DNA of 64,000 bases, taken from the IMG/VR virus record IMGVR_UViG_3300035208_008116, positions 9,539 through 73,538 of that record. The stretch is one strand, 5' to 3'. The notes beneath the pieces are model-generated. The model did no database searches, had not been told where the DNA came from, and saw only the letters and a list, made by a program, of their open reading frames with translations. The translations under genes and the position numbers were made by a program. Shown here in pieces: positions 2,274 through 52,798 of this stretch; position 1 is the stretch's first letter; the number at the start of each line of letters is the position of its first letter. Origin of the DNA: a virus. Taxonomy: Duplodnaviria > Heunggongvirae > Uroviricota > Caudoviricetes.

Positions 2274-2813
2274 TTAATTTTCTAAACAACCCTCAGGGGT
2301 CCAGTCTTCGTCATAGATATACTGGCCGTTCAGGTGACCAAGCTCATGCTGGACAATCTGTGCGTCCTTACCTGAGAGTTCTATCACCCCAGGGGTTGTT
2401 AACGTGACATTCCCATCAATATCCTGAATGGTTTGGCATTCAAGGGTAATTTTATGGAATCGTTGACGAATGATTGGCTTATTATTAGGAAAAGATGAAC
2501 AGGCCTCCTTTTTGTCAACATAAGCTTTAGTATGGTTTATTATAACGGGATTGACAAGTATCTTCGCCTCTGCTGTGACAAAAAACCTTAATGGTCGAGT
2601 GTCATTAATCTGACTATGGGCAATAGCATAAGCCCCAGGATAAGGGCCATTCTGGGTGAAGCAGAGATTGTACATAATCTTGGCGTCTTCCACTAACTGT
2701 GGGAGGTCCTTATCTGTAACAGGAATGCTTTTTAATTTTGTTGGCGGGACAAGATACTTCAAGAAATTAATAGCCCCCTCTTCTTTTGCGGCTTTTGTTG
2801 CTTTATTATCCAT
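2274..2813 (-). CDS. def: peptide deformylase-like metalloenzyme
   Basis: three PDF motifs in order: G-x-x-AIA-x-x-Q, KEACSSFP (EGCLS-like), QHELGHLNG (QHExDHLxG). Confidence 0.6.
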   Translation of the reverse strand: MDNKATKAAKEEGAINFLKYLVPPTKLKSIPVTDKDLPQLVEDAKIMYNLCFTQNGPYPGAYAIAHSQINDTRPLRFFVTAEAKILVNPVIINHTKAYVDKKEACSSFPNNKPIIRQRFHKITLECQTIQDIDGNVTLTTPGVIELSGKDAQIVQHELGHLNGQYIYDEDWTPEGCLEN

Positions 2814-3109
2814 TAGAATTGCTCAAGCCACTTCTTTAACTCTTCGGCTTGAATTTTTGTTAAAACGACCTCCTCATAATTAAGATTCTCAAATCCAAGA
2901 ACATAACTTATTGCCTGTTTAATCCTCCAGAATAGGGGCATCTTTCGATCTGCCTCTACTACGGTTGCCCACATATAACCAAAATCATCATCCCACAATT
3001 CAAAGGCCACAAAATGCCCTTTGCTCCCACAATTACATTCGAGTCTTAAGTCTTTTTTCATAATTATTATTGTTAAATCCAATAATCGGAGCATCGACCC
3101 ATTTCTCAT
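2813..3109 (-). CDS. hypothetical protein
   Basis: 98-aa ORF, start/stop overlap with neighbour. Confidence 0.25.
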   Translation of the reverse strand: MRNGSMLRLLDLTIIIMKKDLRLECNCGSKGHFVAFELWDDDFGYMWATVVEADRKMPLFWRIKQAISYVLGFENLNYEEVVLTKIQAEELKKWLEQF

Positions 3110-3216
3110 CTAAAAAGACGTCATCAACCTTACATTTTGATTCTTTTTTCATCGCGTCGGAGGCAGAATTTGCCATAACAAACTTCCTAACAATATATCT
3201 TTTTTGAGGTAATTTT

Positions 3217-5358
3217 TTAGCCATTTTCGGTTGTTGATGTTCCATTAATTTTAGTGACGATTATTTTATGGTCGAAGAGGTCCTTAATGCTTCTTAGGTG
3301 GGAGATGCAGATGGTCTGTCTAAAATTTCTCCTTAGTTTTTCAAGGACATTAGAAAAATCTTCTGTTGATTCTTCATCAAGTCCAATAAAGAGCTCATCA
3401 AAAATTCTAAATCCAACTTTCTGAAGAGTTGCTAATGCTTCAGCGATAGCTACGGTGATCTTTAATTTTTGACCCCCAGAATAGTTATCGAAATCAAATT
3501 CCTCCCCTACTTCATTATAGATATTAATAAAGAGACCTTCAAGCATTGTTTCCCCATTATTGGCTTGTCTTTGTGTTTCAAGACGGATCCTAAAATCAGA
3601 AAGTTCTCCTAGGATTTCATTAATCTTCTCTTCTAAACGGGGAATAAGATAGTCAACAACAACTGTTTTTACTCCTTTCGGGGAGAAGGCTTCTTTTATG
3701 AGAGAGAGAACCTCGACTTTTTCAGTGACCTCAAGGAGTTCCTGTCTTTTTGTCGCAATTGACTTTTGGCAAATTTCAATAGTATTTTGAGCTTGAACCG
3801 CCACGGCAACTTCCCCTTGAAGAATAGCCAATTGAGATGTAAGTTTCTCCTTTTGTTCTATTAAATTTTTTTCCTTCAAGACATCATAACTTCCTCGGTA
3901 TTCATTAAGTTTTGCCTCAAGCGCGATAATTGTACTTTGGCAATCAGAGGCAGAAACGTTGACCTCTGCGCAATTGGTCATCAAAGAACTTAACTCCCCC
4001 TCATAAGTGGGAAGTTGTTCCCTTTGGCTGAGAATCATTGCTTTCTGGCTTTCTAGATTAGGGATATTCTTAACCAACCCTTTTAGCGTGTTATACCTCT
4101 CAAGGGCCCCCTCGGCGAGAGTGACCTCAGGGCCTAAGGCACTTAGGGCTTCTTCGTAGACCTTCTTTTGTCGTTCTTGTTCTAGCTTTAATTCATTTTT
4201 TTGTTTTATCTGTCCCTCAAGAAACCCCATCTGAGAACTTATTGACTTTGTCGATTTGTAGGAGTGATTACAAACGGGGCAAGTTTCCTCGATTCCCCCA
4301 TCAGTCATCAACTTAATCAATTGTTTATTGATTTCTCGAATTTCTGAGTCATAATCATAATTATTAACCCTGAAATCAGACATAAGAGAACTCCGTTTCA
4401 GTTTTTGTTGATAGATTTTTTCCTGGGTTTCTTCGAGTTCCTTTAGCTCATCTTGATATCCAATTAGTCCTAGTAATTGATGATCGACATTATTAAGATC
4501 TAAACTCTTAATCGTCTCAATCTTGGCTTTAATCGTATCAATTTGATCCGAATAAGTGCGTTGTTGGTACTGAAAGGTCTTTAAAGCAGAAGTCTCGGCG
4601 GCAAGTCCTCTTTCAATGGAATTAACTTCCTCCTCTTTTGCCTTCACTATTAACAGTGAACTATCAACCTCTTGAAGGGTTTTTTGGAGTAAAATCTCTT
4701 GTTCCTTCTTTTGTTGAATGTCCTTTACAAGGGGCTCTGTTTCTTTGATTTGGTGTTCAAGTGACTCAATTTGGGTAACCGCCCGCACTCTTCGCTCCCC
4801 CTCGAGGCTTAATTGGTCGCGGGCGCGTCCATAGTAAAGATCATAGTCCTCAGCACTGATTACTTCGAGGAGGAGGTCTTTCCTTTTATTAGCTGGCTGT
4901 CGGACGAAACTCTCAATGTTGTCTTGCGGATAGGCGACGCTGTTGATGAAGAGCGAGTAGGACGCCCTAACGATCTTGGTTTCGATAAAGTCTTGGATTT
5001 CTTTAAGACCTGTAATCTGGAGAGGAGTGTATTTAATTCCATCATTGGATTCCTCAAGGCTAAGGACATGCTTTCCTTTATCGCTAATACTTCTTTCAAT
5101 TCGGTATTGGACAACTTTGTCATCGGAATCATCTGAAAGGTCAAGAATAACTTTAGCCACTTTTTTGCCTCTTTTGACGAGATTACGGTTGTCTGAACGG
5201 CCTTTGCCATAGAGAGCCCAGATAATCGCTTCTGGGATCGTTGATTTTCCCGAACCGCTGCGTCCATCAATGAGGAACTCCGAATTACTTTCGAACTCGA
5301 TTGTCGTTTTTTCATGTGATAGGAAATTATTAATTTGTAATTTTTTAAGTATTATCAT
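3217..5358 (-). CDS. sbcC: SbcC/Rad50-family recombination ATPase
   Basis: N-terminal Walker A GRSGSGKST, long coiled-coil, CPVC zinc hook, signature YSGGQK, Walker B/D-loop IFDELFIGLDEE. Confidence 0.75.
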   Translation of the reverse strand: MIILKKLQINNFLSHEKTTIEFESNSEFLIDGRSGSGKSTIPEAIIWALYGKGRSDNRNLVKRGKKVAKVILDLSDDSDDKVVQYRIERSISDKGKHVLSLEESNDGIKYTPLQITGLKEIQDFIETKIVRASYSLFINSVAYPQDNIESFVRQPANKRKDLLLEVISAEDYDLYYGRARDQLSLEGERRVRAVTQIESLEHQIKETEPLVKDIQQKKEQEILLQKTLQEVDSSLLIVKAKEEEVNSIERGLAAETSALKTFQYQQRTYSDQIDTIKAKIETIKSLDLNNVDHQLLGLIGYQDELKELEETQEKIYQQKLKRSSLMSDFRVNNYDYDSEIREINKQLIKLMTDGGIEETCPVCNHSYKSTKSISSQMGFLEGQIKQKNELKLEQERQKKVYEEALSALGPEVTLAEGALERYNTLKGLVKNIPNLESQKAMILSQREQLPTYEGELSSLMTNCAEVNVSASDCQSTIIALEAKLNEYRGSYDVLKEKNLIEQKEKLTSQLAILQGEVAVAVQAQNTIEICQKSIATKRQELLEVTEKVEVLSLIKEAFSPKGVKTVVVDYLIPRLEEKINEILGELSDFRIRLETQRQANNGETMLEGLFINIYNEVGEEFDFDNYSGGQKLKITVAIAEALATLQKVGFRIFDELFIGLDEESTEDFSNVLEKLRRNFRQTICISHLRSIKDLFDHKIIVTKINGTSTTENG

Positions 5359-9758: not shown

Positions 9759-9813
9759 ATTTTTTATTTATTATAGAGCCATTATACTCCCAAGCTCCTT
9801 ACTTGTCAACTAA

Positions 9814-11080: not shown

Positions 11081-12074
11081 TGTTATTTATTTGGATTCTA
11101 ATTTGTTCTGTCAATTCGGGATTCTTCTTCAACGCATTCTTGGCATTCTCTCGACCTACTCCAAGTTTTTCCCCATCGTAAGTATAAGTGTTACCAGTCT
11201 TAGTGATCACTCCGATCTTCTCACCATAGTCGAGGGTGTCTCCCTCTAGGTCTATCCCTGTCCCATAGTAGAGGTCGATAGTCCCGGTCTTAAATGGGAA
11301 GGCACACTTATTCTTTACTGCGGTAATCTTAAGGGTGGAACCAATGACCTCATCTTTTGAATCCTTAATCTTATCCACAGTGGCTACACTTAACCGGACT
11401 GAGGCATAGAATTTCAGGGCTTTGCCACCGCTAGAGGTCTCCTTAGGGCCGTAGATGACTCCTACTTTGCTTCTAGTCTGGTTGATGAAGATAACCGAAG
11501 TCTTTGATCTGGCAACGGGCCCAGTGATGATTCTGAGGGCTTTAGAGAGGAGTCTGGCCTGTACTGCATAGGTATCCTTAAGCATACTCTTGGAGTCTTC
11601 CTCCATTTCACTTTTAGGAACAAGGCTGGCAACCGAGTCAACAATAATTAAATCTACTTCATTTGTTTCCGCCAATGTTCTAATAACATCAAAGGCACTT
11701 TCAAGGGTCTCATTTTGAGAGATAATAACTTTAGAAGTATCTACCCCAATCTTCTTGGCGTAATCAGAATCGTAGGCATTCTCAGCGTCAATGTAAGCAA
11801 CAGTGCCTCCGGCCTTTTGAACCTGAGCCGCGAAGAAAAGTGAGATGGTACTTTTCCCCTGACTTGGTTCCCCATAGAGTTCAAGAAGTCTTCCCACCGG
11901 GATACCCCCCCCAAGAAGATTATCAATCGCATAACTTCCTGTAGGGATCATCTCAGTCTTTCCAATAACCTCTTCTTCTGTAATGACAATACTTTCTCCA
12001 TACTTTTTACGGAGATCTGACATCGCGTCCTTAAGTGTAGGTGTTTCGTCTTTTTTCATATTACTTATTTCCAA
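11043..12074 (-). CDS. recA: RecA recombinase
   Basis: GGGIPVGRLLELYGEPSQGKSTI Walker A, AYIDAENAYD, IIVDSVASLVPKSEMEED loop region. Confidence 0.85.
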   Translation of the reverse strand: MEISNMKKDETPTLKDAMSDLRKKYGESIVITEEEVIGKTEMIPTGSYAIDNLLGGGIPVGRLLELYGEPSQGKSTISLFFAAQVQKAGGTVAYIDAENAYDSDYAKKIGVDTSKVIISQNETLESAFDVIRTLAETNEVDLIIVDSVASLVPKSEMEEDSKSMLKDTYAVQARLLSKALRIITGPVARSKTSVIFINQTRSKVGVIYGPKETSSGGKALKFYASVRLSVATVDKIKDSKDEVIGSTLKITAVKNKCAFPFKTGTIDLYYGTGIDLEGDTLDYGEKIGVITKTGNTYTYDGEKLGVGRENAKNALKKNPELTEQIRIQINNNEAKNKKNLNPD

Positions 12075-12822
12075 AGATAACTAACCTCCAAGGACGAAGA
12101 ATTGATTCCCGAAACGCTTCGTCCCAGGCAAACCTCATTCTCAACTCTTCACTCCACACACAAGTTGTATCTGGATCATAGGCTCGAATATATTCACAGG
12201 GTGACATATACCCTTGACACCCAGAGCTTGAGACCGCTGTAACGGGAGCTGTGGACGGAATAATAATTGGTGGTTCTGGTTCAACTGGGGGTAATTCGTC
12301 AATAATACAAGCATCACCCTCTAAATGATAACCTTCCTCGCAAGTGATAGGGATAATTTCAGGAACGCAAGTATCTTCCTCAAGAACAAAACCTTCTTCG
12401 CAAACGACTGGCGGAACAACAACATCAACACAAGTTTCACCCTCAAGGATTTGACCCTCTGGGCAAACAATCGGGTCTGGGATAACTGGGCAAGCCTCAA
12501 TAGTAAATGTCTTGGTGTCTTGAGCCACAACAACCCAGCCCAAGATTAAGCGTCTGACTTGAGCCTTAACGGTATGAGTGCCGACCGGCAAGGTGAAAGT
12601 GCCAGCATTCCAGTTTGAGTGATCGTGATGGCGATTATAAACAACCACATCGTCCAAATACACCCGAACCTTACGCAATGGCTGGAGATAAGTGGCGGTG
12701 CCAGTAATGGTTACATTTTGCTCGCCACAACCAACCGAGATTGGATTAATGGCAATATTGTCCGAGCTAGCGAACGAGAATAAGGGAGCTAAGAGAGCTA
12801 GAGCCAATAGGTATTTTTTCAT
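12061..12822 (-). CDS. secreted Cys-rich repeat protein (signal peptide + 3x CxEGxxLExxxC repeats)
   Basis: MKKYLLALALLAPLFSFASS signal; CPEGQILEGETC/CEEGFVLEEDTC/CEEGYHLEGDAC. Confidence 0.5.
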   Translation of the reverse strand: MKKYLLALALLAPLFSFASSDNIAINPISVGCGEQNVTITGTATYLQPLRKVRVYLDDVVVYNRHHDHSNWNAGTFTLPVGTHTVKAQVRRLILGWVVVAQDTKTFTIEACPVIPDPIVCPEGQILEGETCVDVVVPPVVCEEGFVLEEDTCVPEIIPITCEEGYHLEGDACIIDELPPVEPEPPIIIPSTAPVTAVSSSGCQGYMSPCEYIRAYDPDTTCVWSEELRMRFAWDEAFRESILRPWRLVIFGNK

Positions 12823-12823
12823 A

Positions 12824-12910
12824 TTATTTTAATTGACCTGTTAATAATGCTACTAATAAAACTAAATAAATAATTGGTGAAATTAGGATGGTGAAGATAA
12901 TGGGTTTCAT
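12824..12910 (-). CDS. tiny hydrophobic peptide MKPIIFTILISPIIYLVLLVALLTGQLK
   Basis: ATGA start/stop overlap with upstream peptide gene; single TM helix. Confidence 0.3.
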   Translation of the reverse strand: MKPIIFTILISPIIYLVLLVALLTGQLK

Positions 12911-13008
12911 TTGTTTTTAGCTAATAAAACTCCAAAAAGAAATGCTATCAACGTTGCAACAATTACTGGTCCGACATCTTGGGTTGTAAAAAGGCATATT
13001 GGTTTCAT
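12907..13008 (-). CDS. tiny hydrophobic peptide MKPICLFTTQDVGPVIVATLIAFLFGVLLAKNK (paralog of next)
   Basis: both start MKPI; TM helix. Confidence 0.3.
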   Translation of the reverse strand: MKPICLFTTQDVGPVIVATLIAFLFGVLLAKNK

Positions 13009-13016
13009 ATTAATGT

Positions 13017-13090
13017 AACGACTGATTTACTATTTCTAAAACTGATTTACTATTTCTAAAACTTTAAACGACTGAGTTACTATTTCTAAA
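13017..13090. repeat. tandem 20-bp direct repeat x3 (ACTGATTTACTATTTCTAAA)
   Basis: two perfect adjacent copies 13021-13060 plus third copy with one change 13071-13090, each preceded by AACG. Confidence 0.8.
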
Positions 13091-13266
13091 ACTCTATCTG
13101 CCCATTCTCTATCTTGGTCTTTTTGTGCTTCGGTCAAAGTGTCATAGGGTAGCCATAATTTCTGCCATCGTTCTAATCTGGCAGGGGTGATATTCTCGGT
13201 CTTGGCAATATCTTGACTCCAAGCCATCCATTGATTATGTTCTAATTCAGCTAGTTTTTCTCTCAT
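13036..13266 (-). CDS. hypothetical protein (3' end runs into tandem repeat; true stop uncertain)
   Basis: 76-aa ORF. Confidence 0.3.
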   Translation of the reverse strand: MREKLAELEHNQWMAWSQDIAKTENITPARLERWQKLWLPYDTLTEAQKDQDREWADRVLEIVTQSFKVLEIVNQF

Positions 13267-13289
13267 AGTTGTTTTGTTAATTTAATAAT

Positions 13290-13637
13290 CTAACCAATTG
13301 ATAATATCATTTTTTCTTTCCAACAAGGGCATCGATATGAGTGGCCATCCCATTCCCCCGTAACATTATTTTTACATTCTAGTGCTGGTTTTAATTTTTT
13401 CCCACACATTGAGCAATGATAGGGATCCATCTTTTTTAACTTGTCACCAAAAGATTTTATTAGAGCAAGACTGTGCGCGTAACCATTAGATTCATCGTCA
13501 CGACCTTCTTTTAAGGCTCGTTTATATTCCTTAAAAATTAAGGTTGTCAATTCATCCAAATATTCTTCTGGGGATTTTTCTTCCGGGGCAATCCAAGCAC
13601 TAGGGCAAGAGGATGATGATTGTGTTTGTTTTTTCAT
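13290..13637 (-). CDS. hypothetical Cys-rich protein
   Basis: CSMCGKK...C..CPCW motifs; preceded by junction motif. Confidence 0.35.
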   Translation of the reverse strand: MKKQTQSSSSCPSAWIAPEEKSPEEYLDELTTLIFKEYKRALKEGRDDESNGYAHSLALIKSFGDKLKKMDPYHCSMCGKKLKPALECKNNVTGEWDGHSYRCPCWKEKMILSIG

Positions 13638-13660
13638 CTTATTATTTGTTAGGGGTTAAC
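13638..13660 (-). promoter_or_regulatory. junction motif copy 1 (TTAACCCCTAACAAATAATAAGATG)
   Basis: immediately 5' of start codon 13637. Confidence 0.5.
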
Positions 13661-13733
13661 ATTTTAATTCTCCTCTCCATCCCATAATTACCATATGTTT
13701 AAAGTAGAACCAGAATGTTTTTAAATAAATCAT

Positions 13734-13757
13734 CTCTTTATTTGTTAGGGGTTAATA
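13734..13757 (-). promoter_or_regulatory. junction motif copy 2 (overlaps stop of 13752..13988; followed by ATG of a 24-codon ORF)
   Basis: TTAACCCCTAACAAATAAAGAGATG. Confidence 0.5.
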
Positions 13758-13988
13758 ATTAAACTGCCAAAGTTTTTTCTCAGGTATTTTACAAGTCATT
13801 CTGTAATCACTTCCATCATCGCTCAAGGAGAAGTCATTTACACTATATTCTCCACCAGCGTTTCTACATTCTTTCATTTTGTCTTCTGGGAGAATTTTTG
13901 GAGTTGGTTGAAAAAATGTGAAGATACCACCGAGAATGATAAGTCCTATAGATAATCCTGCTAAAAAATATTGTGTGTTTGTTTTCAT
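13752..13988 (-). CDS. small membrane-anchored/secreted protein
   Basis: N-terminal TM helix; junction motif upstream. Confidence 0.35.
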   Translation of the reverse strand: MKTNTQYFLAGLSIGLIILGGIFTFFQPTPKILPEDKMKECRNAGGEYSVNDFSLSDDGSDYRMTCKIPEKKLWQFNY

Positions 13989-14010
13989 CTCTTTACTTGT
14001 TAGGGGTTAA
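13989..14010 (-). promoter_or_regulatory. junction motif copy 3
   Basis: covers stop of 14000..14353 and abuts ATG 13988. Confidence 0.5.
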
Positions 14011-14353
14011 GTGTGGAAGATAAATACTTCTTAAATATAAACATCGGCATTTTCATTTCTTCCATTGAAGAAGATTTTATATATTGGCGATATTCTTCCC
14101 ACGCTTTTTCAAACCATGGAGCGTTTCTGTATTTGGGTATAAATGTTCTATCTAGTGCTTCACAAACCATTGATGGTAAATCGTTATAGAAATCCTTATT
14201 GTATTTTACTGGGTCAGAGGTTTCATCAATAAACTCCTGTGGCGTCCCGAGAATAATGAACTTCGGTCTTTTGTCCGACATTAAACTTTCTGGTATCTCG
14301 TTACCAATATAAAGTATCTTTTCTTGAATCGCTTGTTCTATTGTTTTCTTCAT
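14000..14353 (-). CDS. hypothetical protein
   Basis: 117 aa, ends LNP* inside junction motif. Confidence 0.35.
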   Translation of the reverse strand: MKKTIEQAIQEKILYIGNEIPESLMSDKRPKFIILGTPQEFIDETSDPVKYNKDFYNDLPSMVCEALDRTFIPKYRNAPWFEKAWEEYRQYIKSSSMEEMKMPMFIFKKYLSSTLNP

Positions 14354-14359
14354 ATATGT

Positions 14360-14548
14360 TTACTTCTTAATGTCTAATAATTTAGATTTTCTAACTCTAT
14401 CGCGAATTTTATCCTGCTGGCTTTGGCTTAGGTGAGAGCAACCGATATGGCGGACACACCATTTGTGCTTATGTCTTTCAAAGTAGCCTTCGTTTGGTCC
14501 TACCCATTCTTCACATAAAATACATTTTCCACCAAATTTGTTTCTCAT
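14360..14548 (-). CDS. small zinc-binding protein
   Basis: CILCEEW...H..C..H; junction motif immediately upstream. Confidence 0.35.
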   Translation of the reverse strand: MRNKFGGKCILCEEWVGPNEGYFERHKHKWCVRHIGCSHLSQSQQDKIRDRVRKSKLLDIKK

Positions 14549-14570
14549 CTTTACTTGTTAGGGGTTAATA
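14549..14570 (-). promoter_or_regulatory. junction motif copy 4
   Basis: covers LTPNK* end of paralog A and abuts ATG 14548. Confidence 0.5.
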
Positions 14571-14820
14571 ATTCAAGGACAAAATTTTTAAACTCTTGAG
14601 AATTTTCGCACAAGTCTGGGGTATATTCATCCACTTTCTCCCTCAAATCCGTATAGATATACTCCACAAGAGAGGGGAGAGAGGCGTGGACTTCGGCAAG
14701 CATTTTATTAGCTCCCTTTATTTCATTTCTAATATCTCTTACAACTTCCTTGTCTCCCCAGCCTAGCATTTCACTAGCTAGTCTCTCCCTCGGCAATAGT
14801 TTTTTTAGGTCTTCAATCAT
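14551..14820 (-). CDS. hypothetical protein, paralog A (MIEDLKKLLPR...LLTPNK)
   Basis: start moved to ATG 14820 (ORF-track TTG 14829); ~60% identical to 14982..15254. Confidence 0.45.
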   Translation of the reverse strand: MIEDLKKLLPRERLASEMLGWGDKEVVRDIRNEIKGANKMLAEVHASLPSLVEYIYTDLREKVDEYTPDLCENSQEFKNFVLELLTPNK

Positions 14821-14975
14821 AATTAGCAAGTACTTATTGGATAATTAGGGTAAAAAGGTTGTTGGGGTGATGTTGGGTGGTTGGGTGGAATATAGGGAAC
14901 AGGATTATTCTGATGAATATAAATGTGGATTTCCACAATTTGTTTTTCTTCTTTTTTTGTTGTTTTATTTTTCAT

Positions 14976-15000
14976 ATCTATTTATTTGTTAGGGGTTAAT
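14976..15000 (-). promoter_or_regulatory. junction motif copy 5
   Basis: covers LTPNK* end of paralog B; followed by ATG 14975 of a 44-codon low-complexity ORF. Confidence 0.5.
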
Positions 15001-15254
15001 AATTCCTCAATATCTTTTATCCTGACAAATACCCCGTCATCTTCTCTCCCTTTTTCCATCTTAATATAAAGTATATTCAATTTTTTAACATTCTCCCTCA
15101 AATCCGCATAGATATACTCCACCAAAGAGGGGAGGGAGGCGTGGACTTCGGCCAAGGCTTTGTTGTAGCCTTCTTGGGCTCTTATTGTCCACCAATTATT
15201 ATTGTGTTCTGCTTCTTTCTTCCTTGGCAATAGTTTTTTTAGGTCTTCAATCAT
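14982..15254 (-). CDS. hypothetical protein, paralog B
   Basis: shares MIEDLKKLLPR, LAEVHASLPSLVEYIY, ELLTPNK with paralog A. Confidence 0.45.
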   Translation of the reverse strand: MIEDLKKLLPRKKEAEHNNNWWTIRAQEGYNKALAEVHASLPSLVEYIYADLRENVKKLNILYIKMEKGREDDGVFVRIKDIEELLTPNK

Positions 15255-15466
15255 AATTTATTTTTTAATTTTGATAAAAATTCCTCGGCAATTTTAAGTA
15301 GGTCAGCTTCTTCAATTCTTAGTGGTCGCATTTTTTCTTCTAGGTCGTGGAGTCGGTGATAGAGATTTGTCATTGTGGTTTCACCATATTTTATTCTGTC
15401 TAAGATGATATCTCTTTTACTTAGAGGAATGTTCGCATATTTCCTAAAAAATTCTTCAATCTTCAT
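15251..15466 (-). CDS. hypothetical protein
   Basis: 71 aa, ATGA overlap with downstream gene. Confidence 0.35.
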   Translation of the reverse strand: MKIEEFFRKYANIPLSKRDIILDRIKYGETTMTNLYHRLHDLEEKMRPLRIEEADLLKIAEEFLSKLKNKL

Positions 15467-15497
15467 ATATTATTTCCTGCCTTTTTAGGGGAGGGGG

Positions 15498-15638
15498 TTA
15501 GAAAGCTAGTTCTTTTAATTTCTCAACAAACTCTTTGTATCCCATATCGATATGTGCAATGGTGTCTCCATCTTCATTGGAGGGGAAAATTGTGTTCAAA
15601 ATCTCAGCTAATAATTTTTCTTTGCCTAGAGTTTCCAT
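15498..15638 (-). CDS. hypothetical small protein (46 aa)
   Basis: ATG-initiated ORF filling gap between genes. Confidence 0.25.
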   Translation of the reverse strand: METLGKEKLLAEILNTIFPSNEDGDTIAHIDMGYKEFVEKLKELAF

Positions 15639-15642
15639 ATTT

Positions 15643-16032
15643 TTATTTCTTGAACATCAGTTCTGCTGAATCAGTGATATTTTTCATTAATTTATGAAGA
15701 GGGCCCTTAATGAAATAATCCCTGATTTCCCTTAAGGCTGGAACGACTTCTTCAAGGGACTTACACTCCCTCCACCCCCTCCTTAAACAAGTTTGATAAA
15801 AATCTTCAATGGCATCTTCTGGAGAGCGATGGAAAGTCCGATTTCCACTAGGATAACCTCTACTATATTCACACCCAGAAGGGGGGCAAGTGGTTAGAAT
15901 ATACTGATAAGGATCACAAGAAATAACAGCCCCCGTCTTCCCCCGATAGGGGATACGAATACCTTTGGATTCTCCCTCTTCGAGAGACCCTTCCTCTTCA
16001 ATATCCTTAATTTTTACTATTTTTGTTTTCAT
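15643..16032 (-). CDS. hypothetical protein
   Basis: 129-aa ORF. Confidence 0.35.
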   Translation of the reverse strand: MKTKIVKIKDIEEEGSLEEGESKGIRIPYRGKTGAVISCDPYQYILTTCPPSGCEYSRGYPSGNRTFHRSPEDAIEDFYQTCLRRGWRECKSLEEVVPALREIRDYFIKGPLHKLMKNITDSAELMFKK

Positions 16033-16180
16033 TTTTCCATGGTGGAGCGTAGTTGCTCTTGATTAACCCACTAGCCATTAAACTTTGGCACTTTAAGCAA
16101 TAGATACACATATGTCCCTGCTTATTTTTTTTACAATATCGGCAGAGCTCATCCTCGTTAGATGATTTCTTGGTAGTCAT
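16007..16180 (-). CDS. small zinc-ribbon protein (MTTKK...CRYC...CIYCLKC)
   Basis: in-frame Met of ORF 16007..16417, which otherwise overlaps fic out of frame. Confidence 0.25.
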   Translation of the reverse strand: MTTKKSSNEDELCRYCKKNKQGHMCIYCLKCQSLMASGLIKSNYAPPWKNENKNSKN

Positions 16181-16727
16181 CGTGCTTACTTGTTCTAAAC
16201 CACTGATAATATTCAATCTGTTCTTCCCCCTCATGAATAATATGCAGGGGGAGGCCCAAGAGCAGACGATGAATGTTGTAGAGAATTCTTCCCACTCGTC
16301 CATTCCCATCCTCAAAAGGGTGGAGAGATTCGAAGAGAATATGGAGAGTCGAAGAAAGATTTGATTTTGATAATGGGTCCATTTTTTCAATCTCAACAGC
16401 AGTCTCGATCGCATCAATGGAATCAGTCGCCCATTCTTTTAGCTGAGCCCTTAGAAGATTCCCATCAATAAAAATCTTTCGATGGCCTCCAATAAAAACA
16501 TCACAGTCTCTTAATTTTCCGGCAATTCGAGGGTTAAGATGCCCCATCAGTTTTTTGTGGATAGTTAAAATATATTCAACTTTCTTCCCCATCCGCTCAC
16601 GATTTTTGTAAGCATATTCCCAAGCCTCTTCGGCGTCAGCTAAAGCCTCGGCACCATAAACTCCCTCAATCGCATTTGATTCCATTAAAAATGAAGTAAC
16701 ATCTGATTGTTTTAATTTTTTTGACAT
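16158..16727 (-). CDS. Fic-domain protein (AMPylase family)
   Basis: canonical Fic motif HPFEDGNGRVGR. Confidence 0.7.
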   Translation of the reverse strand: MSKKLKQSDVTSFLMESNAIEGVYGAEALADAEEAWEYAYKNRERMGKKVEYILTIHKKLMGHLNPRIAGKLRDCDVFIGGHRKIFIDGNLLRAQLKEWATDSIDAIETAVEIEKMDPLSKSNLSSTLHILFESLHPFEDGNGRVGRILYNIHRLLLGLPLHIIHEGEEQIEYYQWFRTSKHDDYQEII

Positions 16728-16730
16728 GAC

Positions 16731-16961
16731 TTAAATATAATTGCCTTTTAATACCTCAAGTAAGTTTCTTAAAAATTTTTTACCATTATCCCCATCCTGC
16801 TTAATCACTTTTGTATTAACTTCTACCCACTCTTCCTCACCAACAAGAAAAGGATGTTCTCCTATTAACCCCTCATTAAAATTAACACAATAATAAGGAT
16901 TGGCTAATATCCTTCCCAGGTCTTCGATTGTTAATGGTTGGTCTCCTTTTAATTTTTTCAT
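16731..16961 (-). CDS. hypothetical protein (leaderless; start at ATG 16961, not ORF-track GTG 16976)
   Basis: TATAAT box 16968-16973 lies 6 nt upstream of ATG. Confidence 0.4.
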   Translation of the reverse strand: MKKLKGDQPLTIEDLGRILANPYYCVNFNEGLIGEHPFLVGEEEWVEVNTKVIKQDGDNGKKFLRNLLEVLKGNYI

Positions 16962-16967
16962 AGTTCT

Positions 16968-17015
16968 ATTATACACCCATCATCATTACTTGGCAAGTAA
17001 CAACCTGTGGATAAC
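16968..17015 (-). promoter_or_regulatory. class-I promoter P1: TTATCCACA box, -35 TTGCCA, 17-bp spacer, extended -10 TGTATAAT
   Basis: rc of 17007-17015 = TTATCCACA; 16991-16996 = TTGCCA rc; 16968-16973 = TATAAT rc. Confidence 0.65.
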
Positions 17016-17231
17016 TTAATCCAGGTCAAAACTAATAATTCTCGCTGCTAACTGAGCTCGCTTTTTCCAATCTGTTTCAAAAGATAATTGACTCCTCAAA
17101 TCGTTCTTCTGGATCTCCCCATAAACGTTCTCGAGAGGAAGAGGCTTTTTCATCATAATTACGGCCTCATCAATCTTTTCTTGGGGGACATCGAGTTCCT
17201 CTAAAGTTTTTCGAATTAATTCTTCGTCCAT
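17016..17231 (-). CDS. hypothetical protein
   Basis: 71-aa ORF. Confidence 0.3.
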   Translation of the reverse strand: MDEELIRKTLEELDVPQEKIDEAVIMMKKPLPLENVYGEIQKNDLRSQLSFETDWKKRAQLAARIISFDLD

Positions 17232-17383: not shown

Positions 17384-18022
17384 TTATTTTATAGCTTCTA
17401 CCCAAATCATCTCACTTCTTTGGACAGTATCTTTTGGGTGCTTGGCGGTCTGAGATGGTGGATGTTGGGGGCTATACATCGGATAAATTACCATCTTGAT
17501 TTTATCGACCTTAAAACCAGCGTGAAAAAGAAGGCGTCCGAGGAAGTCAGGGTTAAAAGGAATATTGTGAAATTCTCCTTCATGGGCCTGATTGCCATAG
17601 ATTACCTCCATCCAATCTTTATAAACTTTCAAATTAAACTTATTTCCTTTGATATTGGTAGCCCAATATTCTGCAATCTGGTCAAAATTTGTAGTCATTA
17701 AACATAATTTTCCTCCAGGTTTAAGGACTCGGTACATCTCATGGAGGACTTTCTCAATGTTAAAGAAGCCCACGTGCTCGATAGCGTCAAAGGATTCAAT
17801 GTAGTCGGCGTAATTATCCTTAAAGGGGAGGGCGGACATGTCAGCTTTGACAAACTTTGACCCCTTATCGATAACTGCCTGAGCGTAAACTCCCTTTTTA
17901 GACTTTAGACCATCAAGGTCAACATACTTGTCGACGTTAATAAAATTTTTTACCAAATGCACGCCACACCCCAAATTTAATTTAATTTTTTTTTTCATTT
18001 TTTTTATTATTAATGTATTCAA
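17384..18022 (-). CDS. class I SAM-dependent methyltransferase
   Basis: LNLGCGVH, DAIEHV, VLKPGGKLCL motifs. Confidence 0.55.
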   Translation of the reverse strand: MNTLIIKKMKKKIKLNLGCGVHLVKNFINVDKYVDLDGLKSKKGVYAQAVIDKGSKFVKADMSALPFKDNYADYIESFDAIEHVGFFNIEKVLHEMYRVLKPGGKLCLMTTNFDQIAEYWATNIKGNKFNLKVYKDWMEVIYGNQAHEGEFHNIPFNPDFLGRLLFHAGFKVDKIKMVIYPMYSPQHPPSQTAKHPKDTVQRSEMIWVEAIK

Positions 18023-18407
18023 GGGTTACTTGTTTTAATCCTCCCCCTTTATCTATTAAGATTTGATGGACTAACTTATGACAAGATTGACAGAGGGGGA
18101 CAAGATCTTGAGGTCTTTCCCTCCCCACCTTTTTGTACGTTAGGTGGTGAAGTTGGATTCTTCTCTTTGCTCCACAGGCACTGCAAATTCTTTCCCTCTC
18201 CCGATAATAATCAATTTTTACTTTTTTCCAATGATCACTTTCCAGATATTTCTGATAAACTTTCTTACTTTTAAATACCTTAAGGCTGCCGCTTACTTTT
18301 CTAGGCTTGGCTCTTGGAACCTTTTTTTTGATCTCATTTAATCGACCTTCTTTCAAAAATCTTCTCCAAGTAAGCTTTGTTTTCTTTTTTGCTTTGTGCG
18401 TTGCCAT
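17982..18407 (-). CDS. HNH endonuclease
   Basis: CSACG...HHL...LCQSCHKLVH HNH motif. Confidence 0.6.
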   Translation of the reverse strand: MATHKAKKKTKLTWRRFLKEGRLNEIKKKVPRAKPRKVSGSLKVFKSKKVYQKYLESDHWKKVKIDYYRERERICSACGAKRRIQLHHLTYKKVGRERPQDLVPLCQSCHKLVHQILIDKGGGLKQVTLEYINNKKNEKKN

Positions 18408-26474: not shown

Positions 26475-26521
26475 TTATCCCCAACTAGGTACTTGCCAAG
26501 TAATGAGGATGGGAGTATAAT
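26475..26521 (+). promoter_or_regulatory. class-I promoter P2 (TTATCCCCA box; TTGCCA-17-TATAAT; leaderless)
   Basis: -35 26493-26498, -10 26516-26521, ATG 26528. Confidence 0.65.
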
Positions 26522-26527
26522 AGCCGT

Positions 26528-29092: not shown

Positions 29093-29139
29093 TTATCCAC
29101 AACTTTTTACTTGCCAAGTGAAAAGAATGGGTGTATAAT
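29093..29139 (+). promoter_or_regulatory. class-I promoter P3 (TTATCCACA; TTGCCA-17-TGTATAAT)
   Basis: -35 29111-29116, -10 29134-29139, ATG 29146. Confidence 0.65.
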
Positions 29140-29145
29140 AGGCGT

Positions 29146-31339: not shown

Positions 31340-31370
31340 ACTTGCCAAGTAGATAAAATGGGAGTATAAT
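31325..31370 (+). promoter_or_regulatory. class-I promoter P4 overlapping helicase stop codon
   Basis: TTATCCACA 31325-31333, TTGCCA 31342-31347, TATAAT 31365-31370. Confidence 0.65.
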
Positions 31371-31426
31371 AGAAGAAGATAAAAAGAGGTTAAGGTCGAA
31401 CCCTCTTGGAGAATAAAGATATTAGT

Positions 31427-38545: not shown

Positions 38546-39835
38546 TTACCATTCATCCCCATATCTTCCATATCCATAGGGCTCATGGTTGTCAGGATGC
38601 CCATAAGGGGCTTGATATGGGTCTTGTTCTGAAGAAGCTAGCTTTTCGGCAAATTCATTATCTAGTTCTTCATTTTCTGTTGGCTTTTTATCTTTTTCTA
38701 TTTCATTAACTTCTTTTGCATATTCGTATTCATTTTGGAAGAAGCAGGCTTTTTTCATCAATTCTTCAATTTGGTGGGTGATAGCAGGAATGTCTTCTGT
38801 GTCTGTAGGGTATACATCAAGATAATTAAAGAAGTCATCAACAATTCCTTCCATTTCTTCTTTGAGTTCTCCTAATTTTGTTAGGAATTCATCATCGATG
38901 GTTGGCTCGTCTTCTGGGGGAATATCAATTTTTTCGGGGTCTTTTTCTTCAGTCTTTATCAATGTTCCTTGACCTTGGAATCCAATTGGCGTTTTTTCGG
39001 TGGTAACGTATGTTCTTTTGACTGGGTCCCAAACATGGAGTGTATTTGAGGTTGATTCGTTTCCTGAAAAATATGAAGTTGCTAGAGTTTGCCTTTCTTG
39101 GAGTAGTCCTAATGGGACATTTGTTAACTTCATTTCTCCCTTAGGTTCGAAGGAATATAATCTTTTTTCTTTGATATTATCTCCTTCTCCCTCTGATGAT
39201 AGTTTAATGAAGCCTCTGCTTTTTGCCATATGGAGTGGGCTAGAATTCCTTGCAAAATATACTCGATGGATTTTTTGAGTTGTCTTATTTATCTGGAGAG
39301 CAATGAAAGCGGCTGATCCTTGGACTTTTCCTTCTTTGTCTCTGTTTCCTTCAAGATAGAGAGCTAATTCAATGGCTAATGTTTCAGAGTCATTGTATTT
39401 TTCAAAGATTGTCTTTGGATTATAAGTGCTTTCAATACTGTATTTTGTTCGGTAATTGAGTCCCATCTTCTCATGACGTTCTTTTAATTCATCATCATTA
39501 CTGATTATTCCGTTATGGATGACTAAATAATCGAACTTTAATGATTTATCACTAACAAAAAGTGGGTGGGTTTGATCTAGGTAATTATCAGTGGAAGTAG
39601 GCATTCTATGGTGAGCGATCATCATTTGAACTGGTTTCATTTCGATATCCATCAAGAATTTTGCGGGTTCGCAAGCTCTTTTAACTTCATAGGTTAGGCT
39701 TGGATTGATGCGAACGACACCAAATCCTTTGCTGCCTCTTTCGTGTTGTTCTTCGTATCGATTGATGATCCAATCATTGACAGGTTTTTTGTTCTTACCT
39801 TTTTTGGTATCGAACATGGCTATTAATCCACACAT
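38546..39835 (-). CDS. class-II (Ntn) glutamine amidotransferase domain protein with acidic C-terminal tail
   Basis: N-terminal MCG (Cys2 nucleophile), HNGIISN motif. Confidence 0.55.
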   Translation of the reverse strand: MCGLIAMFDTKKGKNKKPVNDWIINRYEEQHERGSKGFGVVRINPSLTYEVKRACEPAKFLMDIEMKPVQMMIAHHRMPTSTDNYLDQTHPLFVSDKSLKFDYLVIHNGIISNDDELKERHEKMGLNYRTKYSIESTYNPKTIFEKYNDSETLAIELALYLEGNRDKEGKVQGSAAFIALQINKTTQKIHRVYFARNSSPLHMAKSRGFIKLSSEGEGDNIKEKRLYSFEPKGEMKLTNVPLGLLQERQTLATSYFSGNESTSNTLHVWDPVKRTYVTTEKTPIGFQGQGTLIKTEEKDPEKIDIPPEDEPTIDDEFLTKLGELKEEMEGIVDDFFNYLDVYPTDTEDIPAITHQIEELMKKACFFQNEYEYAKEVNEIEKDKKPTENEELDNEFAEKLASSEQDPYQAPYGHPDNHEPYGYGRYGDEW

Positions 39836-41532
39836 TAGAATTGTACGTTATTGTCTGATAATTGGTTTTCGCTATGGATTATTCGCAATGTCTCCTCAGC
39901 ATCACTATAGTCTGCTTCATACATTGCTTCTCCTGGGCCAAAAGGATTTTCTCCGAGGATTCTTTCCCCTGATTCTATTCTGGCTTGATCCATTTCTTGA
40001 GCGACTTGCCTTGTTGCTTCAGCAGCTCTTCGGGCAGGATTGGAATCTTTATCGATGTGAAGATTTAATTCTTTTTGGTGAAGAACTTCTGTAATTTCTC
40101 CTGGAGTTCTTTTTCCGTCAATTTCGATATATTCAGGAAGATTTTTATGACTAATTTCAACTGGCTTTAAACCTTTTTCAATACTGTGGACTAGTTTTAA
40201 GAATGGTTTAAAGTTTAATTCTTGTCGATCTTCGTAAGGAATTCCAATCATAACAATAGGGATTTGCGTATCTTTGGCTAATTCTCCCGTGCGTAGATTA
40301 ATCATATTGTTATAATTTTTGAAGGCGGAACGATAGCGAGATTGCATCTTAATCAGAATTTCTTTCATGCTTTCAAGATCGTCTTGAGTTTTTAGTCTTT
40401 CTTGGCCAGCAAGGAAGTGAAGATTAGCATCAACAGCCATTAAGCTCTTTATTCCTTTTCGTAATCCAAAGAAGAAATATTGGTGATTAAGTTTCCAATT
40501 AAAGGCAACGATTCGTTTCGATAATTCTTTGGCGAATGTTTCGACATTGCTATCTCCATTGATAGTAAAGTTCACAAATCCGGAGAGTTCTTCAATATCT
40601 AGTTTCTTATTGATTGGAACAATTTTCTTGGCGAGAACTTTTTGAGCATTTGGTAAATTGGATGGCTTTTGGAGTTTCCAGCCTTGCATGATGTTGTAAC
40701 TAACAGCTTTTTTATCTGCGAGGACTCTTTCTGGATTCAAGATATAATTAATTTCATTCTTGTACATAGGATAGAACTCGAATTTCTTAATATATTTCTT
40801 GATTTGTTCAATGATTCCTTTTGACAAGGCTGGATAATCAGCGAGTAGAAGTTCTTGAAGAGCTGATCCTTGTTTTTCTGTCTTAAATATCAGATCATTA
40901 TATTTTGCGAATGCACGAGGATGATTAATGATCTCATTGTAGACAGTGCCTAAAAAGGCCATTGTTGCCATTGCAATTTTTGGGGTTGTTAGCCATTCGG
41001 CGCTGGGGGTACGAAATTCGTAAACAGCTATTCCGTTTTTACTATCTGCTCTGGAATCATTGAGTTTTCCATAGCCTGATTTTAATCGGACGTTTAGATT
41101 CATTTTGTTGTCTCCACTCATAAGTGGAAGATAAAATGAGGCTAATCGTTTATGGATCAGATTAACTTTTCCGTTGTTAGTGGAATTGCTTGGAAGTGAG
41201 AAGTGAATATGGCCTCCGACTGATCCGTGAAGACTTAATGTTGATAGATCGAAGAGGGAAAGTTGTTTGCTGACAGCTTTGAAGATTTTTCCTATATTAT
41301 CGACTAGTTCGGCAGGATTTTTGGCATATTTAGGACGGATTTCTCCCGTTTCATTGCAGCCATCCCAACCAAATTCTCCTCCTGGGGTTTCGAATCCCAT
41401 GCTTCTTGATGGCAATCCTTCGAGGAGGCTAGAAAAAACTTCTTCGGCACTAACACGATTATCTTGTAGTAAGAGATTGAATTCAGGATCAGCTCCGATT
41501 GTGAATCCAAAGTCTGGGGTTTTTTTTGGCAT
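39835..41532 (-). CDS. glutamine-synthetase/GCS2-fold carboxylate-amine ligase (amidoligase-like)
   Basis: TIGADPEF, ETGEIRP, GGHIHFS motifs in order; start overlaps amidotransferase stop. Confidence 0.4.
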   Translation of the reverse strand: MPKKTPDFGFTIGADPEFNLLLQDNRVSAEEVFSSLLEGLPSRSMGFETPGGEFGWDGCNETGEIRPKYAKNPAELVDNIGKIFKAVSKQLSLFDLSTLSLHGSVGGHIHFSLPSNSTNNGKVNLIHKRLASFYLPLMSGDNKMNLNVRLKSGYGKLNDSRADSKNGIAVYEFRTPSAEWLTTPKIAMATMAFLGTVYNEIINHPRAFAKYNDLIFKTEKQGSALQELLLADYPALSKGIIEQIKKYIKKFEFYPMYKNEINYILNPERVLADKKAVSYNIMQGWKLQKPSNLPNAQKVLAKKIVPINKKLDIEELSGFVNFTINGDSNVETFAKELSKRIVAFNWKLNHQYFFFGLRKGIKSLMAVDANLHFLAGQERLKTQDDLESMKEILIKMQSRYRSAFKNYNNMINLRTGELAKDTQIPIVMIGIPYEDRQELNFKPFLKLVHSIEKGLKPVEISHKNLPEYIEIDGKRTPGEITEVLHQKELNLHIDKDSNPARRAAEATRQVAQEMDQARIESGERILGENPFGPGEAMYEADYSDAEETLRIIHSENQLSDNNVQF

Positions 41533-47730: not shown

Positions 47731-47777
47731 TTATCCACAGCTGGATACTTGCCAAGCTGATAGGATGGGTGTATAAT
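47731..47777 (+). promoter_or_regulatory. class-I promoter P5
   Basis: TTATCCACA 47731-47739, TTGCCA 47749-47754, TGTATAAT ending 47777. Confidence 0.65.
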
Positions 47778-47786
47778 AGGAGCATT

Positions 47787-48401: not shown

Positions 48402-49012
48402 ACACCAAACCAAACACTTACTCGCGATTTAATCCTTTGACTCACTCCTACGAGATGATTCATAGGGAGGAACTCCTTAAGCGGAACCTTAAGATTATTA
48501 AACTTAGGGGGGAAGGCTTGACTTATGAGGAGATTGGCAAGCGATTTGGTATAAGCCGAGAGAGGGTGAGGCAAGTAGGGAAGCTTCTTAAACCAGAGTT
48601 TTTTACCAACCAGAGGCAAAAATCCCCGAGGAAGATTGTAAAATGCCATTGGTGTGGCAAACCGGTAGATATTAGGCTCTGGGATTGGCAAAGAGACAGG
48701 GTGACCGGCAAGAAAAGGCATTATTATTGCAATCAGAAGTGCTCATGGGCAGATAAAAGGATCTATCAGAGTAAGGAGGAGCAGCAGGCGGAGATGATGA
48801 GGCGTTATAAGATTCGCTATCGCCAAGACCCTAAAGTAAGGCAAGCCCGGGCGGAAGCTTCAGTTAAATGGATAAAGAAGCTTAAATTAGATCCTGTTAA
48901 GTGGGAAGCTTATAGGGAGAAGCAAAGGCTCTGTTCTAGAAAATGGCATCGTATTAATAAATTAAGAAAGAAAAAAAATGAGCAAAATCATATTACGAGG
49001 GGACGCCGCTAG
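48398..49012 (+). CDS. sigma-70 region-4-like HTH protein with basic zinc-ribbon tail
   Basis: LTYEEIGKRFGISRERVRQV matches sigma r4.2 HTH; CHWCGK...CNQKC. Confidence 0.45.
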   Translation: MNTKPNTYSRFNPLTHSYEMIHREELLKRNLKIIKLRGEGLTYEEIGKRFGISRERVRQVGKLLKPEFFTNQRQKSPRKIVKCHWCGKPVDIRLWDWQRDRVTGKKRHYYCNQKCSWADKRIYQSKEEQQAEMMRRYKIRYRQDPKVRQARAEASVKWIKKLKLDPVKWEAYREKQRLCSRKWHRINKLRKKKNEQNHITRGRR

Positions 49013-52751: not shown

Positions 52752-52798
52752 TTATCCACAGTTCCCTACTTGCCAAGTAAGAAAGATGGGAGTATAAT
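52752..52798 (+). promoter_or_regulatory. class-I promoter P6 with no ORF downstream for ~600 bp
   Basis: TTATCCACA 52752-52760, TTGCCA 52770-52775, TATAAT 52793-52798. Confidence 0.65.

Follow-up and report, generated by a model that had tools for sequence, protein, structure and literature searches.

A repeated stop/start junction in a variable small-gene array upstream of recA in an uncultivated large tailed phage

Introduction

Small accessory genes are gained and lost very quickly in phage genomes, and to our knowledge the way in which this turnover happens is documented in few cases, mainly the promoter early stem-loop (PeSL) elements of T4-like phages. Here we describe a 64,000-nucleotide stretch of phage DNA (positions 9,539 to 73,538 of IMG/VR record IMGVR_UViG_3300035208_008116, called the window throughout), in which an array of small open reading frames (ORFs) is joined by five copies of a short junction motif. 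Two of the copies terminate paralogous genes of about 90 codons, here called anchor genes. Comparison with related contigs suggests that the motif is probably a stop-restart linker at which accessory-gene cassettes are also joined by recombination. What would be new is a minimal, partly coding, translational linker tied to the turnover of single-ORF cassettes in uncultivated large phages.

Repeats between genes have been described in several settings. Botstein's modular theory of 1980 is said to hold that short "linker" homologies at module boundaries guide the homologous exchange of unrelated genes; it dealt with functional modules in lambdoid phages and has had little direct support, whereas the unit considered here is a single small ORF and the boundary a stop/start junction. 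In integrons, attC sites are imperfect palindromes of 57 to 141 bp that are recombined as hairpins by IntI, and the cassette array is accompanied by an adjacent intI tyrosine recombinase gene, attI, and Pc. The present array resembles an integron in its promoterless small genes of one orientation, with a repeat after each and a single upstream promoter, but it differs in that no palindrome was found and the repeat overlaps coding sequence. An earlier note on this DNA had invoked attC logic; this is not borne out, as no inverted repeats occur at or around the motif copies and no recombinase domain was found in the approximately 40 ORFs scanned (a part of those in the window, with 38 kb of the source contig lying beyond it).

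The PeSL elements of T4-type phages combine a strong sigma70 promoter, a stem-loop terminator, and a Shine-Dalgarno sequence (Arbiol et al. 2010, PMC2839356; Comeau et al. 2014, PMC4122927). As in PeSLs, the motif is a short repeat that bridges the stop and start codons of successive ORFans, it is concentrated in a hyperplastic region between conserved core genes, and it lies beside differences in the content of small genes of unknown function that suggest insertion, deletion, and replacement between relatives. It differs in having no promoter, stem-loop, or Shine-Dalgarno sequence, in being about 20 to 25 nt long and half anchor coding sequence, and in lying inside a polycistronic unit. The start-associated sequences (SAS) and extended start-associated sequences (ESAS) of Cluster K mycobacteriophages, GGGATAGGAGCCC, are 13-bp elements with a Shine-Dalgarno core, placed 3 to 7 bp before the start; they occur 11 to 19 times over half a genome at non-structural genes, and their function is unknown (Pope et al. 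2011, PMC3203893). Like SAS, the motif is an asymmetric repeat of one orientation a few nucleotides upstream of non-structural starts, sometimes holding the upstream stop, next to genes of different families. In contrast to SAS, it is C rich and lacks a Shine-Dalgarno sequence (no AGGAG), its core ends 9 to 14 nt before the ATG, and it is clustered in 1.4 kb by one gene family, beside differences in gene presence and absence. For the intergenic repeats of halovirus HF2 (29 or 58 bp), experiments have demonstrated promoter function and AT-rich boxes are present (Russ et al. 2021, PMC8707807); they too are short gene-junction repeats conserved among viral relatives, but HF2 is an archaeal virus and no promoter features were found in the motif. 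The locus works like the PeSL-rich hyperplastic regions, a comparison already drawn in the earlier note, but is not itself a PeSL, because the defining features of PeSLs fail: the motif has neither sigma70 boxes nor a stem-loop. It is also not attC, SAS, or a generic ribosome-binding site.

The junction motif in the window

Five minus-strand copies of a 25-mer were found in the window with at most three mismatches, against a mean of 0.01 copies in shuffled sequence. They have the form TTAACCCCTAACAA(A/G)TAA(N2-6)ATG and span 13635 to 14999 (approximately 1.4 kb), which confirms the five near-identical minus-strand junctions of the earlier note. The copies and the genes that they separate are as follows, in the direction of transcription:

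14982 to 15254, minus strand: anchor paralog 1, 90 aa, MIEDLKKLLPRKK..LAEVHASLPSLVEYIYADLRE..LLTPNK
14973 to 14999, minus strand: motif copy 1 (25-mer at 14975-14999), TTAACCCCTAACAAATAAATAGAT-ATG, from the anchor gene 1 stop (LLTPNK*) to the start of the 50-aa gene
14823 to 14975, minus strand: Pro-rich ORFan of 50 aa, between the two anchor paralogs
14551 to 14820, minus strand: anchor paralog 2, 89 aa
14546 to 14568, minus strand: motif copy 2 (25-mer at 14544-14568), TTAACCCCTAACAAGTAAAG-ATG, from the anchor gene 2 stop (LLTPNK*) to the start of the 62-aa gene
14360 to 14548, minus strand: Cys/His-rich ORFan of 62 aa
14000 to 14353, minus strand: 117-aa cassette, member of a widespread family (71 clusters)
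13986 to 14010, minus strand: motif copy 3 (25-mer at 13986-14010), from the second-frame stop of the 117-aa cassette (..STLNP*) to the 78-aa gene start
13752 to 13988, minus strand: 78-aa cassette with an N-terminal membrane segment and the motif on either side
13731 to 13755, minus strand: motif copy 4 (25-mer at 13731-13755), from the 78-aa gene stop in the third frame (..FNY*) to the start of the 25-aa ORF
13656 to 13733, minus strand: 25-aa ORF between two motif copies 96 nt apart
13635 to 13659, minus strand: motif copy 5 (25-mer at 13635-13659), from the 25-aa ORF stop (..LKC*) to the start of the 115-aa gene
13290 to 13637, minus strand: Cys-rich ORFan of 115 aa, which follows the last motif copy

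Every copy contains the stop of the upstream ORF and has the ATG of the next ORF at its end, in agreement with the earlier description. TAA occurs at motif positions 2, 9, and 16, one per frame, and all three frames are used by the upstream tails in the window, which read LLTPNK* (twice), ..TLNP*, ..FNY*, and ..LKC* (once each). All five copies carry the 14-mer TTAACCCCTAACAA without mismatch, it is unique to the array within the 64 kb, and a search of the same sequence with up to two mismatches gave a single additional match, at an unrelated site (50250). In two of the window copies the first ~7 codons of the downstream gene are also shared, extending the repeat to about 45 nt.

Most genes of this phage have no Shine-Dalgarno sequence and begin behind AATAAA-rich leaders. 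The 3′ part of the motif (AAATAAAG..ATG) is therefore similar to the generic start context, which leaves TTAACCCCTAAC as the only specific part. None of the ~98 other gene starts of the window carries a copy. The motif is therefore not the generic ribosome-binding site of the phage, the other starts being without the core, and the wide distribution over unrelated starts that the earlier note had weighed as a counterargument was not seen. RNA folding of the five junctions revealed no shared fold or stem-loop (z-scores from −2.4 to +2.1), the motif being either unpaired or paired with non-homologous partners that vary by copy. No terminator-like sites were found at the copies, and a search of 12000-17200 against Rfam 15 gave no relevant match even at an E value of ≤1.

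The genes of the array are all ORFans, with no above-threshold match in Pfam, PHROGs, or PADLOC. No relatives of the 115-aa gene were found in viral contigs. The 25-aa ORF is possibly a remnant rather than a gene; its identification as a decayed anchor-gene copy was rejected, the alignment score lying within the range of shuffled sequences.

The anchor gene family

The two anchor genes form a duplicated pair, as previously noticed, but their identity is 49% (BLASTP) to 57% (MAFFT) rather than the approximately 60% first given, and it is concentrated in two DNA blocks of 65 nt (92% identical) and 48 nt (90% identical). The family comprised 16 clusters initially and about 30 after a profile search, and presents three conserved blocks, MIEDLKKLLPREK, LAEVTASLPSLVEYIYADLRE, and the C-terminal LLTPNK. 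The 5′ half of the motif is this last block, the coding 3′ end (LLTPNK*) of the anchor genes, a relation that the earlier note did not make out, and the other motif copies are consequently best seen as an anchor tail plus junction that would have been copied elsewhere. Distant members end in "LL" followed by a polar tail (LLTPNQE, LLSTKK, LLTNKE, and LLEIKDK), which indicates that the tail is an old protein feature. In the close subfamily, pairwise codon identity at conserved residues is 0.75, whereas codon usage would predict 0.37, and there is essentially no variation in TTA ACC CCT AAC, which points to conservation at the nucleotide level.

The anchor gene itself (14551-15254, minus strand, with homologues in L024 to L099) is a mosaic, in which three blocks are nearly invariant in nucleotide sequence, synonymous sites included, and the stretches between them are hypervariable in length and sequence. 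The blocks could be intragenic recombination anchors or could reflect a constraint at the RNA or DNA level. An AlphaFold model of the anchor protein (predicted local distance difference test score of 75) shows a long helix, a beta hairpin, and a short helix, and had no PDB match at an E value of <1. The top match of the anchor profile in the representative library, P0092 (967 aa), gave an alignment confined to 16 tandem repeats that are similar to the middle block (..VVQYIYTNLRHLL..) and is probably a translated tandem repeat instead of a relative. A scan of genome contigs with a degenerate form of the N-terminal block gave 28 matches, all of them chance coding of the "KAIAEE" type, and provided no clue to a host or prophage.

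Conservation of the motif in related contigs

The contexts of 13 anchor-family members and of three contigs obtained from motif scans were compared; most of these relatives are contigs of 1 to 4 kb. The scans with an 18-mer matched 5 viral and 27 metagenome loci once each, and only L003, L011, and L024 proved to be related. A broader pattern, TTAACCCCTAACARRDAA, was discarded, as its 18 viral matches are close to the number expected by chance (from a rough estimate of collection size) and lie in mixed contexts; one of them is upstream of an ORF that is transposase-like, judged from its N-terminal sequence.

Across the relatives, the 11-nt core TTAACCCCTAA is found at 21 gene junctions in 12 contig lineages and is nearly invariant. 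The near identity over 22 to 25 bp reported for the window holds within it, but among relatives the invariance is restricted to this core. Upstream (5′) of the core, conservation is lost abruptly, and the stretch from the core to the ATG varies in sequence and length, the ATG following 20 to 25 nt after the first T of the core and 9 to 14 nt after its end. Twelve of the 21 copies terminate anchor genes and nine terminate unrelated genes, and among the latter the stop falls in frames a, b, and c in the ratio 3:2:4. This nearly even spread argues for an element that acts at the nucleotide level, with no conserved peptide at those nine copies. Two copies, L036_1087 and L097_950, are degenerate. 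A rare variant is often common to the copies of one genome (5 of 5 in the window, and 2 of 2 in L038), as would fit local duplication or gene conversion, and L036 and L046 mix variants that are also present in other contigs, a pattern consistent with import.

Variable gene content beside the motif

The backbone that recurs in these contigs is an anchor gene followed by the motif and a mini-membrane peptide (MKP...), and the genes for the latter, conserved among related contigs, bound the cassette slot on its 3′ side. In the window they are as follows:

12907 to 13008 and 12824 to 12910, minus strand: mini-membrane peptides of 33 and 28 aa, with MKPI starts and an ATGA overlap

Between the anchor and the mini-peptide, L093 and L094 have no unrelated gene, the motif connecting the two directly, and L099, L034, and L039 have one each; between the same flanks, nine ORFs occur in the window together with five motif copies. 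From the anchor to a shared "..QSAIERTK" gene, L046 and L038 have one unrelated cassette and L036 has two, each followed by a motif copy. In four contigs with an identical anchor protein, several small upstream genes have been replaced. The locus is accordingly a hypervariable accessory region, as had been supposed, with gene content that differs between related contigs beside conserved copies of the motif.

The 117-aa cassette provides the closest view of a boundary. It shares 90% nucleotide and 96% amino acid identity with a gene on an otherwise unrelated viral contig, L100, whose flanks have a GC content of 0.44 to 0.47 versus 0.37 for the cassette and whose only other gene in common with the window is a distant chaperonin. 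The two genes are homologous from ~9 nt ahead of the ATG as far as codon ~112, and the homology ends ~9 nt short of the motif. The motif is absent from L100; there the protein ends in PPQSAII* and an AAGGAGG Shine-Dalgarno site serves the next gene. In the window the core of the cassette ends in ..FKKYL and the tail SSTLNP* is supplied by the junction, and most of the 44 family members retrieved end their core in ..FKKY(L/I), with subsequent tails that differ between most of them. A third homologue, in L101, is fused to the junction repeat of that contig. The 78-aa cassette, with three homologue clusters whose tails differ, presents the same pattern on a smaller scale. Constant core ends followed by different tails indicate that gene bodies move and that the local junction supplies the last codons and the stop. 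The evidence for insertion, deletion, or replacement consists of the gene content that varies between contigs beside the motif and of one homology break ~9 nt before it.

A second junction repeat (M2) precedes the array, and the two features are as follows:

15467 to 15500, minus strand: M2, TAACCCCCTCCCCTAAAAAGGCAGGAAATAATAT-ATG before a 71-aa gene, C rich, TAACCCCCTCCCCTAAAAAGG..ATG
15251 to 15466, minus strand: this 71-aa ORFan, which fills the slot between M2 and the anchor, with an ATGA overlap between its stop and the anchor gene 1 start

M2 reads CCCCTCCCCTAAAAAGGCrGGAAATAATAT-ATG and recurs before unrelated genes in the region upstream of the anchor gene where small genes have been replaced. 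It is near-identical in L094 (~612-645), where a 56-aa gene takes the place of the 71-aa gene, and is also present in L093 (895-931); upstream ORFs end within it in different frames. M2 looks like the main core with a 6-nt insertion. L101 (IMGVR_UViG_3300033073_001188) carries its own array of small genes at 2400-4530, with three copies of a repeated junction, CACCCCCACCAAGACAGATAAG.., and two copies of a 62-nt junction repeat that encodes the tail ..SDKTADND* and the head MIEKLSPTL of the next gene. The "MIEKL.." genes were considered as anchor homologues and rejected (hhalign probability of 0.4%), and the L101 array is for this reason treated as analogous and not homologous. This array suggests that lineage-specific junction linkers may be a wider habit.

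Genomic setting and transcription of the array

The window comes from a large tailed phage. It encodes a terminase, a tail protein, RecA, Rad50/Mre11-like proteins, RuvC, PrimPol-DnaB, an SNF2 helicase, a GroEL-like chaperonin, Ro60, peptide deformylase, and three to four tRNAs, and belongs to a source contig of 102 kb. No isolated relatives of this phage were found, and the anchor gene and array region occur in no isolated phage. Between recA and a conserved 71-aa gene (17016-17231), the window has a slot of 4.9 kb (12074-17016). Syntenic relatives, which are distant (RecA 56 to 58% identical) and share both flanking gene sets, with a conserved flank gene of 71 to 92 aa, have the same recA-proximal slot at 0.2 kb (L048, 9827-10004), 0.75 kb (L049, 3740-4489), and 3 kb (L050, 6947-10007), and the junction motif was not found in them. 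Since the slot of these relatives measures 0.2 to 3 kb and is without the motif, versus 4.9 kb here, the array is placed by this synteny in a hyperplastic slot upstream of recA. Its GC content is 0.34, versus 0.40 for the window. An HNH endonuclease is encoded inside the equivalent slot of L049, and another HNH gene lies at 17982-18407 in the window; the slot of the window also encodes a Fic-domain protein (16158-16727).

A sigma70-like promoter repeat, (A)CTTGCCAAG-N8-ATGGGnGTATAAT-AG, is present in seven strongly conserved copies in the window:

16966 to 16997, minus strand: promoter copy at the head of the variable region
~9781 to 9809, minus strand: promoter copy
26492 to 26523, plus strand: promoter copy
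29110 to 29141, plus strand: promoter copy
31341 to 31372, plus strand: promoter copy
47748 to 47779, plus strand: promoter copy
52769 to 52800, plus strand: promoter copy

The copy at 16966-16997 has the orientation of the array, lies 1.5 kb upstream of it, and is likely the source of the array transcript, so that the array would most simply be internal to an early polycistronic transcript. A consensus promoter scan revealed no recurrent site or sigma70 boxes at the five motif copies. In three copies of the promoter repeat TATAAT ends exactly 6 nt before an ATG, and in a fourth 9 nt, from which leaderless or near-leaderless early mRNAs are predicted. The −35 region lies within a small palindrome (CTTG.CAAG).

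Origin and function of the motif

The reading that we consider probable is that the motif is a stop-restart linker composed of the last anchor codons (..LLTPNK), one or more TAA, and an A-rich start context with its ATG. The anchor tail plus junction would have been copied to further junctions in the hyperplastic early-gene slot, where the linker would offer a homology patch of 20 to 45 bp for the insertion, deletion, duplication, and swapping of small genes between co-infecting relatives. Unequal or inter-genomic exchange at such 20- to 45-nt identities could duplicate, delete, or import cassettes, and the phage encodes recombination proteins that count toward this reading (RecA, Rad50/Mre11-like proteins, and RuvC). 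With TAA in three frames and a ready start, any ORF on the 5′ side would be terminated and the ORF on the 3′ side would keep its start, and illegitimate fusions would therefore be tolerated. We propose that by terminating and restarting translation the joint allows arriving ORFs to be expressed at once, within the same early polycistronic mRNA. The comparisons above establish the repeat, its conservation as nucleotide sequence, its use in three frames, the varying gene content next to it, and a cassette whose homology stops just short of it; recombination in the linker itself and not next to it, and a role of the linker in expression, we infer.

Several observations weigh against this reading. 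Among the relatives there is no near-identical genome pair showing an insertion or deletion bounded exactly by two motif copies. Some boundaries in the window are free of the motif (50-aa gene/anchor gene 2, 62-aa/117-aa genes, and 115-aa/76-aa genes), and the inserts of L099, L034, and L039 adjoin the mini-peptide without it. The L100 breakpoint lies before the motif and not inside it, which fits illegitimate fusion equally well, and 20 to 25 bp is short for RecA-type recombination. The idea that stops in three frames are a special design is weakened, as three-frame stops within 25 nt occur at 18 of 98 other junctions in the window (18%), versus 0.5% of random 18-mers. Finally, invariance of the core in 12 lineages, out-of-frame copies included, suggests selection on the sequence itself, for which recombination alone does not account.

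This last point leads to an alternative that we regard as possible, if on the unlikely side, namely, an RNA-level expression signal: an SAS-like enhancer of translation initiation or of termination-reinitiation, or, in a variant, the operator of an RNA-binding regulator or endoribonuclease, of phage or host, that co-regulates a subset of early genes. Repetition would then reflect selection for the signal and not recombination, and such a signal may coexist with the linker. The fixed orientation and the narrow distance of 20 to 25 nt to the ATG, within the 30S footprint, speak for it together with the invariant core, and so do a region predicted to be unstructured and without shared fold and upstream stops that lie 2 to 20 nt before the ATG, a geometry of translational coupling. 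Signals other than Shine-Dalgarno are plausible where most phage genes lack one, and SAS elements set a precedent 3 to 7 bp before starts (PMC3203893). On the other hand, the motif occurs only at junctions next to the anchor family, the other genes of the presumed operon and the ~98 other starts being without it; its 5′ half is explained by a coding tail that distant members conserve at the protein level; degenerate copies exist (L036_1087 and L097_950); the C-rich core is unable to pair with the canonical anti-Shine-Dalgarno sequence; and conservation is lowest next to the ATG. A middle or late promoter, or one read by a phage factor, that would give each small gene a separate transcript is very unlikely, and this applies also to the late-promoter option of the earlier note. 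Viral intergenic repeats are often promoters, as are PeSLs (PMC2839356) and the HF2 repeats (PMC8707807), and the motif has the orientation of the genes, but it shows no −35/−10-like pair, the consensus scan gave no recurrent site at the copies, only 9 to 14 nt separate the core and the ATG, the motif is missing elsewhere in the window, and a different, conserved sigma70-like repeat of seven copies has one member in the same orientation 1.5 kb upstream. The least credible reading makes the DNA repeat a by-product of a C-terminal peptide tag (LLTPNK/E) shared by small proteins. In its favor, 15 of the 21 copies read ..LTPNK/E or the variants ..LTPNR, ..LTPKE, and ..LTSNKE (3 of the 15 in proteins outside the family), distant family members keep the "LL" and polar C terminus, and several consecutive genes of L101 share similar tails; yet six of the nine non-family copies are read in other frames (..LNP*, ..INP*, ..Y*, ..C*, and ..F*) and synonymous positions of the core are invariant. 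A site-specific enzyme (an integron-like recombinase, homing endonuclease, or transposase) that captures cassettes at the motif could be suspected from the sharp repeat boundaries, the invariant 11-nt core, the single orientation, and the HNH genes nearby (17982-18407, and inside the L049 slot). It is highly improbable in view of the inverted repeats and hairpin that were not found, the lack of a tyrosine or serine recombinase or transposase among the ORFs examined, an anchor protein of ~90 aa with no known fold match, and the many cassette boundaries that have no site.

Turnover of cassettes by junction repeats is expected in principle, and the evidence for it here is comparative and comes from short contigs. 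A more specific mechanism could be envisaged in view of the invariance of the core and of the anchor gene, which always comes before it. In this mechanism the anchor gene and the linker would constitute a dedicated, integrase-free system of gene capture, belonging to a clade of uncultivated phages, whose core is read, as DNA or mRNA, by a phage factor. That factor, possibly the ~90-aa anchor protein encoded immediately upstream in every case, would promote cassette insertion or switch on translation by reinitiation, and other lineages such as L101 would carry their own version of the linker. We regard this as decidedly doubtful. Under the stop-restart linker reading, the locus would reach a PeSL-like outcome with a simpler joint, about 20 to 25 nt of the tail of a conserved gene, with neither promoter nor terminator. 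If this is true, the "linker" model of modular exchange extends to single-ORF cassettes in uncultivated large phages, and the anchor gene together with TTAACCCCTAA becomes a handle for harvesting from metagenomes fast-turnover early genes, which are candidates for a part in host takeover or counter-defence. That the core is invariant could also point to a new expression signal independent of the Shine-Dalgarno sequence.

Other features of the locus and window

Two further genes lie next to the array, as follows:

13036 to 13266, minus strand: 76-aa gene with a weak RyR-domain match and 20-bp repeats (13021-13093) at its 3′ end
12061 to 12822: 253-aa protein with a signal-peptide-like N terminus and Cys-rich repeats

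The 20-bp repeat had been described as three tandem copies; there is a repeat, but it consists of 2.2 perfect copies (13021-13063) and a third copy displaced by 30 nt. The overlapping MKPI mini-peptides and the secreted-like Cys-rich repeat protein are as originally described.

Elsewhere in the window, a gap of ~610 nt (52805-53413, plus strand) without a convincing ORF has one promoter copy directly upstream and lies directly 5′ of a phage Ro60 homologue (TROVE-vWA gene, 53414-54820), which makes it a candidate for a Y-RNA-like non-coding RNA; an Rfam search of the gap gave no match. ARAGORN predicts a 93-nt tRNA-Arg(ccg) at 55549-55641 (plus strand) that the Rfam tRNA model does not report at its gathering score, and the call may be false or may represent an unusual or interrupted tRNA. 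Auxiliary genes of the type found in large phages encode a phiEco32-like COOH-NH2 ligase (38546-41532, minus strand), the GroEL-like chaperonin (48978-50582, plus strand), and peptide deformylase (2274-2813, minus strand), and an ORF adjoining the ligase has a weak, below-cutoff match to GATase_6.

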